From assembly GCA_045805985.1 (NCBI GenBank), contig JBJMKA010000015.1:31843-95842 (forward strand): 64,000 nt of DNA, written 5' to 3'. The notes beneath the pieces are model-generated. The model did not search any database. It was not told where the DNA came from and saw nothing but the letters and a program-made list of their open reading frames with translations. The DNA is from Gaiellaceae bacterium. GTDB taxonomy: Bacteria; Actinomycetota; Thermoleophilia; Gaiellales; Gaiellaceae. Positions within the stretch are counted from its first letter, which is position 1. Each line of letters starts with the position of its first letter. The translations under genes and the position numbers were made by a program. Below, one piece after another: positions 19,255 through 51,018 of this stretch.

Positions 19255-19266
19255 AAGCAAGCTCCT

Positions 19267-19463
19267 GAACCTGGTTCGGCCTGCACGCCACGGGCGACCC
19301 GGCTGTGACGGGCACTGCCGAATCAGGTTCGGCCTCGAGTCGGAACCTGATTCGCGCAACCAGCGACAGACCTCACCGCCGAATGCGGCGCGCGCGAACC
19401 AGGTTCGTGAGTTCCGGTCGCCCAGCGCAAACTCCTGAACCTGGCGCCCCGAATCAGGTTCAG
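19267..19463. repeat. Array of six GAACCWGGTTC-type dyads with alternative helices (argS-glpX spacer)
   Basis: Copies at 19267, 19320, 19343, 19396, 19437 and 19451. Helices: 19267-19280/19317-19330, 19319-19331/19341-19354, 19435-19443/19455-19463. Confidence 0.85.
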
Positions 19464-19500
19464 TCTCGAAGCGCGCCGCTGAACTCTAGGATCAGTCCCG

Positions 19501-40483: not shown

Positions 40484-40547
40484 AACCTGGTTGGCGCTAC
40501 CTGCGGCGTTGGGCCTCAGGGATAGACGTTCGCGCCGCAACCAGGTT
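40484..40547 (+). other. 64-nt hairpin element sharing the AACCTGGTT base with the 19.3-kb dyads
   Basis: AACCTGGTTGGCGC (40484-97) pairs with GCGCCGCAACCAGGTT (40532-47): 10 bp, a 2-nt bulge, then 4 bp. 34-nt loop. Followed by TGTGCGTT. Confidence 0.6.
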
Positions 40548-47386: not shown

Positions 47387-47686
47387 TTGGGCTCGGGCTT
47401 CGTCGCAATCCTCACCGTCGAGCTCCACTTTCCGGAAGCAGCGTCCCTGAAGGGGAAGCGCCACTACGTGCGCTCCGCGAAGGACAACCTGCGCAACCGC
47501 TTTGGCGCCGCAGTCGCGGAGGTCGACCACCACGACCTCTGGCAACGCGTAACGCTCACGGTTGCCTGTGTGTCCCGCTCGGCACACGAAGCCGAAGAGC
47601 TGGCCGACGGCGCCGAGCGCTGGCTCGCCTCCGGCGACTGGGTGCTCGTGCGGTGCGATCGCCTGCTCGTGTCACCGGACGATTGA
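47387..47686 (+). CDS. ylxP: DUF503 (YlxP-like) protein
   Basis: SLKGKR ... RFGAAVAEVDHHDLWQR signature. Conserved position between infB and rbfA. TTG start. Confidence 0.8.
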   Translation: MGSGFVAILTVELHFPEAASLKGKRHYVRSAKDNLRNRFGAAVAEVDHHDLWQRVTLTVACVSRSAHEAEELADGAERWLASGDWVLVRCDRLLVSPDD

Positions 47687-47850
47687 TGATCGGTTCCCGA
47701 TTCGAGTGCCCGCGGGGAGGGTCTGCACCAAGCAGCGTGGCTGACCCGACCGGTGCGAAGGCAGGTTTGCCTTGGTGCTGGTCGGGGCGGGCGCGATGCG
47801 CCGCGTGCAGGCCCCCATCCGTGGGTGCTCAGAATCGGGAATCGATCATC
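47685..47850 (+). other. ~166-nt rod-like imperfect palindrome filling the ylxP-rbfA spacer
   Basis: 47685-47703 pairs with 47832-47850 (19 bp, one G.U). 47704-47711 pairs with 47823-47830 (8 bp, two G.U). Further pairing 47712-47728/47805-47822. Apical helices 47741-47753/47778-47790 and 47758-47763/47768-47773. Confidence 0.75.
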
Positions 47851-47863
47851 TACGCTGCCGGTC

Positions 47864-48232
47864 GTGTCCGAGCGCATGCGCAGAGTCAACGAGTCCGTCC
47901 GCGCCGTCGTCGCGGAAGGCCTCGGGGAGCTCAAGGACCCGCGGATCGGGATGGTCACCGTCACCGGCGTGCACGTCACACCCGACCTCGCGGAGGCGCG
48001 CATCTTCGTCTCCGTGCTCGGCAGCGACAAGAAGCGGACGGCGACGCTTGCCGGCCTCGATTCGGCGCGCGGGGTCTTGCAAGCGAAGCTCGGCCGGCAA
48101 CTCAGCTTGCGCCGGACACCCGCGTTGACCTTCACCTACGATGACTCCGTCGAGCGCGGCGTGCGCATGACGAAGCTGATCGAGGATCTGGCGGCGGACC
48201 TTCCCGAGAGTGAGCCAGATGCAGAGCAGTGA
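47864..48232 (+). CDS. rbfA: Ribosome-binding factor A
   Basis: Tail of ORF 47753..48232. GTG 47864 (VSERMRRVNESV) or ATG 47876. RbfA KH-like core (VTVTGVHVTPDLAEARIFVS). Confidence 0.9.
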   Translation: MSERMRRVNESVRAVVAEGLGELKDPRIGMVTVTGVHVTPDLAEARIFVSVLGSDKKRTATLAGLDSARGVLQAKLGRQLSLRRTPALTFTYDDSVERGVRMTKLIEDLAADLPESEPDAEQ

Positions 48233-50046: not shown

Positions 50047-50955
50047 GTGAACGTCGTTCGGAGGCCAGAAGAGCTCGAGCAGCGGCCGCGCGCGGTCGCG
50101 ATCGGCACCTTCGACGGTGTGCACCTGGGTCACCGCGCGGTCATCCGCGCGGCGCTCGATGCCGGCGCAGGTTCGACGAAGTCGGACACCGAAGGGGCCG
50201 CGCTGACCCCGACGGTCGTCACCTTCCATCCGCACCCGCGGACCGCGTTCGGCAACCGGGTCGCGCTCCTCTCGACGCTCGAGCGGCGGCTCGAGCTCTT
50301 GGCGGCACTCGGGGTCGAAGACGTGCTCGTCGTCGAGTTCACGCCCGAGCTGGCTTCCGTGCCACCTGAGGACTTCGCGCGCGACTACCTGGCGCAGATC
50401 GGCGCGGAGATCGTCGTGTGCGGGACCGGGTTCCGATTCGGACGCCAGCGTGCGGGTGACTGCGACCTGCTACGGGCGCTGGGCTTTGACACGCGCGAGG
50501 TGCCGCTCGTCGCGGGAATCTCGTCGACCAAGATCCGTCAGCTGGCAGAGGCCGGCGACGTAGAGGGTGCCGCGCGTCTGCTCGGACGGCCGCTCGAAGT
50601 CGATGGCACGGTCGTCAGCGGCGACCATCGCGGCGGCACACTCGGTTTCCCGACCGCGAACTTGCTGGTCGCGCCGGACATGCTCGTGCCCGAGTTCGGC
50701 ATCTATGCGGGTGCCGTCGGGGACAAGCGGGCTGCGATCTCAATCGGCGTCAACCCGCACTACGGCGGCACCGAACGGCGGGTCGAGGCCTACCTCCTCG
50801 ACTGGACCGGCGATCTCTACGGCGACCGCCTGGTCGTCGAGCTCTGGCGGCGGCTGCGGGAGGAGCGAGCCTTCGCGAGCGAGGCCGATCTGGTCGAGCA
50901 GATCGCCCGCGACGTCGAGGAGACGAGGTCTGCTTCCCGTCCGGTAGAGGCTTGA
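50047..50955 (+). CDS. ribF: Bifunctional riboflavin kinase / FMN adenylyltransferase
   Basis: GTFDGVHLGH and GFPTANL ... YGG motifs. GTG start. Confidence 0.93.
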   Translation: MNVVRRPEELEQRPRAVAIGTFDGVHLGHRAVIRAALDAGAGSTKSDTEGAALTPTVVTFHPHPRTAFGNRVALLSTLERRLELLAALGVEDVLVVEFTPELASVPPEDFARDYLAQIGAEIVVCGTGFRFGRQRAGDCDLLRALGFDTREVPLVAGISSTKIRQLAEAGDVEGAARLLGRPLEVDGTVVSGDHRGGTLGFPTANLLVAPDMLVPEFGIYAGAVGDKRAAISIGVNPHYGGTERRVEAYLLDWTGDLYGDRLVVELWRRLREERAFASEADLVEQIARDVEETRSASRPVEA

Positions 50956-51018
50956 TGTGGATTGGGGTGCTTGCGGGCTCGCGCGCAAGGTTCTCCCGCA
51001 CACGGCGTCTTGTGACGT

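Follow-up and report, generated by a model that had tools for sequence, protein, structure and literature searches.

The hairpin that separates the DUF503 (ylxP-like) gene from rbfA is very probably a lineage-specific insertion of a non-autonomous MITE-like element of about 165 nt, which belongs to a repeat family of uncultured soil Gaiellaceae. It is located at 47685-47850 of the stretch of DNA that was analysed (64,000 nt, the window). Two readings of this structure had been offered in a preliminary description: a dedicated processing or stability element of the nusA-infB-rbfA operon, and a miniature inverted-repeat insertion. The insertion reading is supported by a dispersed family of related hairpins and by short empty spacers in the relatives; the operon reading is not supported, as no conserved element was found at this position in the relatives examined and their spacer is short. 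Striking as the hairpin is, a MITE-like insertion is nothing out of the ordinary.

The hairpin fills the spacer between the two genes, as had been claimed, and forms a 72-bp rod in RNAfold. The folding energy of 47675-47870 was -137.3 kcal/mol, compared with -87 +/- 4.3 kcal/mol in 200 dinucleotide shuffles (z = -11.6), and none of the 200 shuffles was as good. The main stem of the rod includes 45 G-C, 17 A-U and 10 G.U pairs. All structural details of the preliminary description were correct on recomputation. The pairing of 47685-47711 with 47823-47850 contains 27 pairs, a single bulge (47831) and exactly three G.U pairs, and the apex AAGGCA-GGTT-TGCCTT is present in the computed fold. The stem starts inside the stop codon of the ylxP-like gene (TGA at 47684-47686, stem from 47685), and its right arm ends close to rbfA, with 13 nt between the stem end and the GTG start codon at 47864. 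The features of the locus are listed in Table 1.

Table 1. Features of the hairpin and its surroundings in the window.
Feature	Position	Strand	Basis
DUF503 (ylxP-like) gene, stop overlapping the element	47387..47686	+	Pfam PF04456, E = 2.1e-25
Non-canonical left junction, T in place of TA	47684	.	Comparison with relatives
Full-length copy of the mobile hairpin, 166 nt	47685..47850	+	Fold and family profile match
Left terminal inverted repeat GATGATCGGTTCCCGATTC	47685..47703	+	Alignment with 10 close copies, whose termini are GATGRTYGRTTCC
Conserved core, CAAGCAG (47729-47735) and GATGCGCCGCGT (47795-47806)	47729..47806	+	Invariant or near-invariant columns
Right terminal inverted repeat, reverse complement GATGATCGATTCCCGATTC	47832..47850	+	One mismatch to the left end
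TA at the right end, junction ...CATC/TA/cgct	47851..47852	.	Right-flank TA in 46/54 copies
rbfA	47864..48232	+	Pfam PF02033, E = 4e-31; starts in relatives
Truncated family copy, left end TA-GAGGCTTGATGTGGATTGGGGTGCTTGCGGG	50945..50979	+	Terminus search

The 19-nt terminus GATGATCGGTTCCCGATTC was found at 47685 on the plus strand and, with one mismatch, at 47850 on the minus strand, where the chance expectation is 0. A genome search for this terminus had been suggested as a check; the exact sequence was not found in the genome beyond the element itself. The family came to light through its core. The two conserved core blocks bracket a covarying apical stem, and the core-pattern match G000:C15:79571-79648 corresponds to 47729-47806 of the window. 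The whole genome (3.56 Mb, 20 contigs, 68% G+C) was searched by BLAST with the 166-nt query, which gave a 72%-identical copy on contig C19 and many matches to the core, each of which is itself a rod of ~165 nt. BLAST and nhmmer identified about 16 full-length family copies in this genome. A profile built without the 47685-47850 copy recovered that copy with E = 4.7e-9 (model positions 13-170, same orientation), and a profile of the major subfamily alone recovered it with E = 1.9e-5.

Twelve of the genome's copies form a young, near-identical subfamily bounded by GAGGCTTGATGTGG...CCACATCAAGCCTC. The copy beside rbfA falls in a second subfamily (GATGRTYGRTTCC...), which has two other, diverged members in this genome and is abundant in other genomes; it has the core and the outermost GATG...CATC motif in common with the rest of the family. 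The family termini also bound mini-versions of 25-77 bp and occur as solo ends, and both look like decay products. The truncated copy at 50945-50979 provides the final codons and the TGA stop of ribF in the same gene cluster.

The family is also present in other genomes. Full-length matches with 77-88% identity were found at many loci when 142 same-genus genomes were searched, and those inspected were non-orthologous. The locus L064 (genome G018) was considered as an orthologous filled site and rejected, as its neighbours are an SDR gene on one side and an aquaporin gene on the other. The distribution was examined with the two-block core pattern CAAGCAG N45-75 GATGCGCCGCGT, and the reversed pattern served as control. 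The core pattern is multi-copy in several Gaiellaceae genera, including 34 matches in genome G080 and 22 in genome G372 from another genus. Elsewhere in the order, in its four remaining families, the pattern was no more frequent than the reversed control, and the matches were coding sequence. The protein relatives of infB all came from metagenome-assembled genomes labelled Gaiellaceae, Gaiellales or Thermoleophilia, which places the window in an uncultured actinobacterial lineage of soil. The Gaiellaceae that carry the family are an abundant, uncultured soil lineage. A literature search on MITEs in Gaiellales gave no paper, and the family appears to be a new, undescribed MITE-like family in this little-studied lineage.

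Comparison of the orthologous spacer, which had been proposed as a check, showed that the hairpin is missing from the relatives examined. The distance between DUF503 and rbfA is -4 to 33 nt in 16/20 same-genus loci, compared with 177 nt in the window. Three of the remaining four loci have spacers of 64-143 nt without a family match, and one has a partial DUF503 match with an unmeasurable spacer. The DUF503 stop and the rbfA start are -4 to 5 nt apart in 8/9 loci from other families of the order. In a genus-wide DNA search, the two flanks matched as adjacent segments in every listed genome. The short spacers of the relatives indicate that the hairpin is an insertion. The joined flanks of at least nine of the genome's copies are contiguous in the nearest relatives; most copies are missing there and are thus recent gains.

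The junctions were compared with those of the nearest relatives, whose flanks are ~90% identical to the flanks here. The junction reads 'ccggacgat TGA tc TA cgctccc...GTG' in the relative genome G079, 'gac TGA tcatc TA cgct...' in G048 and 'gat cga TGA tc TA gggt...' in G067. The filled junction reads 'ccggacgat T[GATGATCGG...CCGATCATC]TA cgctgcc...GTG'. On the right, the junction has the canonical form, and its TA-cgct is present once in the spacers of the nearest relatives. The left junction lacks the GATC(ATC) found in the relatives, and the DUF503 stop TGA is composed of the flanking T (47684) and the first two bases of the element, GA. The 'empty' spacers of the relatives hold 4-7 nt (GATC, GATCATC or GATGATC) that are identical to the element ends.

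Two histories fit these junction sequences. The element might have inserted recently at that TA, and six bases might then have been lost between GAT repeats. Alternatively, an older insertion could have been lost later from the relatives, leaving footprints of 4-7 nt of the element ends. The more distant relatives have either 'gac TAG gctccc...', where the stop codon is C-TAG-G, or 'gac TGA <9-25 nt>CCATC TAG gctccc'. The 'CCATC TAG' junction looks like the right end of a copy from a different subfamily, and therefore the site may have been hit more than once. In the proposed course of events, the target would have been a TA that adjoined the DUF503 stop codon or lay inside it; the left junction would have been altered later, or the insertion would have been imprecise, so that the DUF503 gene now ends in a flanking T and the GA of the element.

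The ends of the family were defined from 59 collected copies, from this genome and including 40 fetched from other genomes; the ends were definable in 54. The copies are 163-172 nt in length. Their termini are inverted with the common sequence GAKGVTTGAT, seen as GAGGCTTGATG, GATGATTGATT and GATGGTTGATC, and the copy ends read C-TA-[GAKG...CMTC]-TA-G. A flanking TA was found on the left in 39/54 copies, on the right in 46/54 and on both sides in 34/54, whereas base composition alone predicts about 2.5%. The combination CTA...TAG flanks 19 of the 54 copies; C precedes the left TA in 30/39, and G follows the right TA in 28/46. The outer bases beside the TAs vary independently, and the first G and last C of the element are constant, which rules out a 4-bp duplication and indicates a 2-bp one (TA) with a preference for CTAG. 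The two clean comparisons of filled and empty sites (copies C15:12184 and C18:33544) showed a single CTAG or TA in the empty site; the filled and empty pairs 8, 9, 11, 12, 13, 14 and 16 were too diverged or ambiguous for the duplication to be read. Several junctions hinted at a likeness between the target sites and the element ends that goes further than TA; a permutation test rejected this, with 2.5-2.6 of 10 matches in both the real and the permuted sites.

Many copies are located on stop codons. In 26/54 copies, the flanking TA and the terminal G of the element form the TAG stop of the flanking gene, and these genes have a strong coding signature (GC3 about 0.9). Such junctions were found at 12 left and 16 right ends, with two copies on both sides. 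By the same gene criteria, stop codons account for 5% of the non-coding TA and 21.5% of the non-coding CTAG sites in this genome. With its G at the start and C at the end, the element restores a TAG whenever it lands on the TA of a TAG or TAA stop, whichever strand the gene is on. This rebuilding, together with the safety of gene 3' ends, might explain why half of the copies are on stop codons. The enrichment could reflect either targeting or the survival of harmless insertions. Stop-regenerating insertion into stop codons is a feature that deserves follow-up.

These observations agree with the properties of a MITE: the copies are small, numerous and dispersed, they have inverted ends and a duplicated TA, and their presence varies between relatives. 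An autonomous partner with the same termini was not found in a scan of this whole genome and of the IS630-type loci of the genus. The element would presumably be moved in trans by a putative TA-duplicating DDE transposase, of the IS630/Tc1-mariner type or an IS5 subgroup. IS630 itself prefers CTAG targets. The TA duplication and the CTAG preference are consistent with a MITE derived from IS630/Tc1-mariner; similarity to the termini of DDE_3 elements was not found. No pair of family termini 250-3000 bp apart in this genome enclosed a transposase, and the search returned only a nested artefact. A terminus pair of 735 bp on contig C5 was rejected as an autonomous element, as it encloses the start of an ordinary lipoprotein-like gene. 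IS630-type (DDE_3) sequence is represented in the genome solely by a fragment that lies at the ends of contigs C13 and C16; it was rejected as the partner, because its terminus ...CTCAGGTCAC/TA/G shares the target and has different ends. DDE_3 was found in only 22/142 same-genus genomes, and the family termini were found at 0/30 IS630-type loci of the genus. An IS427-like element at the start of contig C5 was also rejected, since its termini (GAACCTGG...) are those of another repeat family in the genome.

The genome also contains five Y1_Tnp genes (RAYT/IS200-like), and a family copy was found within 3 kb of one of the five, at a distance of 735 nt. An association with RAYT was rejected: 29 orthologous RAYT loci in other genomes, representing orthologues of one RAYT clade, lacked a copy in the surrounding 1.5 kb, and at the position of the RAYT-adjacent copy the site is empty in the nearest relatives. 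The adjacency in this genome is a coincidence.

The fold of the family is conserved. In an alignment of 28 copies with 59 consensus pairs, 94% of the cells were paired, compared with 80.8% after shuffling and about 40% when the register was slid. Two-sided changes were found in 39 pairs, whereas 23 were expected, and none of 500 shuffles reached this number. Compensatory changes thus maintain the hairpin. Whereas CAAGCAG and GATGCGCCGCGT are near-invariant, the apical stem between them covaries, even across genera. The profile and covariation results both speak against the copies being unrelated sequences.

The two strands of the element are not equivalent. The consensus pairs include 321 G.U and 9 A.C, and the fold-independent comparison of each copy with its own reverse complement gave 924 G.T and 241 A.C. 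One strand folds better in 54/54 copies, with a mean of -113.6 compared with -91.5 kcal/mol (a difference of about 22 kcal/mol). The values for the 47685-47850 copy are -129.5 kcal/mol and -97.4 kcal/mol on the complement. In this copy, the 'stable-strand' orientation of the family coincides with the sense strand of the operon. Among the copies between co-directional neighbours, the stable strand is sense in 7 and antisense in 16. Gene orientation was rejected as the cause of the asymmetry, as was indicated by the stop-codon junctions (12 left and 16 right); GC skew (11/17) and the gene-strand majority (8/17) were also rejected in this genome. The copies are not co-oriented with genes, and the asymmetry is therefore not explained by selection acting on hairpins in the mRNAs where copies reside. 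The asymmetry points to a single-stranded step in propagation, or to strand-specific mutational exposure, and it sits awkwardly with double-strand cut-and-paste. A strand-specific fold that is kept by covariation without gene co-orientation is also a feature deserving follow-up. If the asymmetry reflects mobilisation, it would bear on the movement of orphan hairpin repeats, such as Correia and ERIC.

One speculative reading, which we consider unlikely, takes the family not as an ordinary cut-and-paste MITE but as a mobile hairpin that needs one strand folded (as ssDNA or RNA) for its propagation, is recognised through the internal-loop blocks CAAGCAG and GATGCGCCGCGT, and specifically homes to stop codons and rebuilds them. 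If true, this would be an undescribed kind of bacterial repeat, which combines TA/CTAG duplication with single-strand, structure-dependent mobilisation.

It is likewise unlikely that the family is mobilised as ssDNA by an HUH/Y1 enzyme, as in REPIN-RAYT or IS200/IS605-like systems, with TA as the cleavage or target motif and no true duplication. The strand asymmetry in 54/54 copies, where G.U pairs far outnumber A.C, speaks for such a mechanism; so do the compensatory changes through G.U intermediates and the lack of a gene-orientation bias by which mRNA-level selection could account for the asymmetry. The genome has five Y1_Tnp genes, and REPINs are hairpins with compensatory changes that are thought to move as ssDNA (PMC3116915). 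However, the symmetric C-TA and TA-G flanks fit a 2-bp duplication of the palindromic CTAG, and the two clean empty sites have one TA. The single neighbourhood of RAYT and a family copy is coincidental (0/29 orthologous loci), and no orientation bias was found against GC skew (11/17) or the gene-strand majority (8/17). In summary, the compensatory changes and the single-strand fold resemble a REPIN/RAYT system, whereas clustering next to RAYT genes was not found.

The gene order around the copy beside rbfA is rimP, nusA, a ylxR-sized ORF, infB, DUF503, the hairpin, rbfA, a DHH/DHHA1 gene (nrnA-like), truB and ribF. It is improbable that the hairpin is a selected RNA processing or stability element, such as a site of RNase III cleavage by which rbfA-truB would be uncoupled from infB, whether ancestral or exapted in this lineage from the inserted repeat. 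Several observations could be read in this way. The duplex is very long and stable, it is in the sense orientation within the operon, and the copy is better paired than the family (-129.5 compared with a mean of -113.6 kcal/mol). The genome encodes RNase III, the enzyme that in E. coli processes transcripts such as metY-nusA-infB and rpsO-pnp. Correia hairpins are also cleaved by it (PMC2229807). Nevertheless, the element is missing at this site in all other genus genomes examined, so that presence at the orthologous position in related genomes was not found; the same element is located at unrelated loci in both orientations, and nothing in its sequence is locus-specific. An annotation of the hairpin as a regulator of the translation-factor operon should therefore be avoided.

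The insertion might still have consequences for its host operon. In the relatives, where the DUF503-rbfA spacer is very short or missing and a Shine-Dalgarno sequence is not obvious, translation of rbfA seems to be coupled to termination of DUF503. The stem has the DUF503 stop at its 5' base, and its 3' base is followed 13 nt later by the rbfA start. In a rimP-nusA-infB-DUF503-rbfA-nrnA-truB-ribF transcript, the element would form a very stable RNA rod that brings the DUF503 stop near the rbfA start. The rod could hold the two codons physically adjacent. The coupling may thus survive, and the insertion may be tolerated because of this closeness. The operon sense transcript would carry the more stable strand of the element. 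As a side effect, the transcribed hairpin would probably be a good RNase III substrate, by analogy with known repeats, and it may act as a barrier to 3'-exonucleases, as suggested by its likeness to Correia, ERIC and REP sequences. The Correia analogy also makes it plausible that the hairpin affects the expression of rbfA. Rods inside operons represent natural experiments on how a stable RNA duplex acts on coupling, processing and decay.

The start of rbfA was assigned to the GTG at 47864 by homology (VSERMRRVNE in relatives). The rbfA frame is open upstream into the element (ORF 47753-48232), and gene callers could therefore over-extend rbfA. The annotation should use the start at 47864, and not an in-frame GTG upstream within the repeat.

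Finally, it is highly improbable that the element is a mobile small-RNA gene (~165 nt, with its own signals and a cellular or selfish function through internal-loop motifs): CAAGCAG and GATGCGCCGCGT are conserved across genera, the intervening stems covary and the fold is strand-specific, but no Rfam family matched, no sigma-70 promoter or intrinsic-terminator consensus was found near the hairpin, the copies are on stop codons in either orientation, their presence or absence varies among close relatives as for a selfish repeat, and the conserved blocks could equally be transposase-binding sites. The best Rfam scores of the region were from plant miRNA precursor models (18-21 bits, compared with gathering thresholds of 124-142), and these sub-threshold matches reflect the generic hairpin shape only.

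Several known bacterial repeats resemble the family. RUP is a 107-bp pneumococcal MITE with TA targets, and IS630-Spn1 is its proposed mover (PMC2229807). Both RUP and the Gaiellaceae family are small, non-coding, multi-copy and intergenic, insert at TA, and have inverted ends that pair into one hairpin (PMC2229807, PMC3049150). The termini of RUP match a resident IS630-family element, whereas no matching element was found for the Gaiellaceae family. The two have no sequence similarity. GC richness, a length of about 165 nt, strand asymmetry and a strong association with stop codons set the Gaiellaceae family apart.

The Correia repeats of Neisseria (CREE/NEMIS) are also similar: they are about 100-155 bp, have inverted ends and a TA site, and have no known transposase. 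They differ in phylum and in sequence. The co-transcribed Correia RNA hairpins are cleaved by RNase III, which changes the expression of neighbouring genes (PMC2229807, PMC2649163, PMC10969869). RNase III cleavage, IHF binding and promoter creation have been shown for Correia. Stop-codon rebuilding and the G.U strand asymmetry are features of the Gaiellaceae family, for which no description was found in Correia.

The likeness to REPINs includes dispersed hairpin repeats with two-sided compensatory changes, for which an action as ssDNA was proposed (PMC3116915); RAYT-like genes are also present in this genome. REPINs cluster by the RAYT gene and are without target duplication, whereas the Gaiellaceae copies are TA-flanked and adjacency to RAYT failed. 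The ERIC/IRU and REP/BIME sequences are imperfect palindromes in transcription units, which alter mRNA stability or processing (PMC10969869, PMC3049150). The comparison with them is an analogy of possible consequence only and not of homology. Action as an RNase III target or as a 3'-exonuclease barrier was shown for Correia, REP and ERIC, and might be expected here by analogy only.

In another species of the same genus, a family copy (1718-1878 of locus L048, G007:C73) lies directly after rbfA (1342-1701), not before it. This copy inserted independently of the window copy, into another gene junction of the same operon. The DUF503-rbfA spacers of two other relatives, L050 (G021) and L052 (G010), are 121 and 143 nt long. 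Neither spacer matched the family profile, and with their flanks they showed only moderate folding (-59 and -67 kcal/mol, respectively).

The rbfA frame has no stop in the 37 codons that precede its true start (window 47753-47863) and runs into the family copy, with a GTG at 47753. Automatic annotation could, owing to this open frame, give RbfA an N-terminal extension. A truncated family copy was also observed at window 50945-50979; it reads TA-GAGGCTTGATGTGGATTGGGGTGCTTGCGGG, beyond which the sequence is unrelated, and it overlaps the 3' end of ribF. The last codons of ribF (gta gag gct) and its TGA stop (50953-50955) are supplied by this truncated copy.

The genome containing the window (G000) has identical sequences at the ends of several contigs, which fall into four groups (see table). 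The sequence at one shared end is the 3'-terminal part of a gene for an IS630-type transposase, terminating ...GGTCAC|TA|G; therefore, the assembly was broken by multi-copy insertion sequences and under-represents them.

Y1_Tnp genes and shared contig ends in the genome containing the window (G000)
Feature	Location
Y1_Tnp gene	C7:292484
Y1_Tnp gene	C12:86472-87059
Y1_Tnp gene	C6:573410
Y1_Tnp gene	C13:332663
Y1_Tnp gene	C6:265813
Shared contig end	C13 start / C16 end
Shared contig end	C10 start / C11 end / C15 end
Shared contig end	C1 / C19 start
Shared contig end	C7 / C9 start

Five Y1_Tnp (RAYT/IS200-like) genes were found in this single 3.6-Mb genome, and a relative of the one on contig C12 is present in 98 of the 142 genus genomes. 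This rich HUH-transposase complement probably serves the other REP-like repeat families of the genome. Outside the window, an IS427-like element of the IS5 family (G000:C5:1-900) carries DDE_Tnp_1 and DDE_Tnp_1_2. Its termini are GAACCTGGAAG... and ...CTCCTGGTTC, and the motif of these ends is the GAACCWGGTTC dyad motif (compare window 19260-19465 and 40484-40547). As an alternative to a REP/RAYT origin, the GAACCWGGTTC dyads of the window might be derived from the ends of the IS427-like element.
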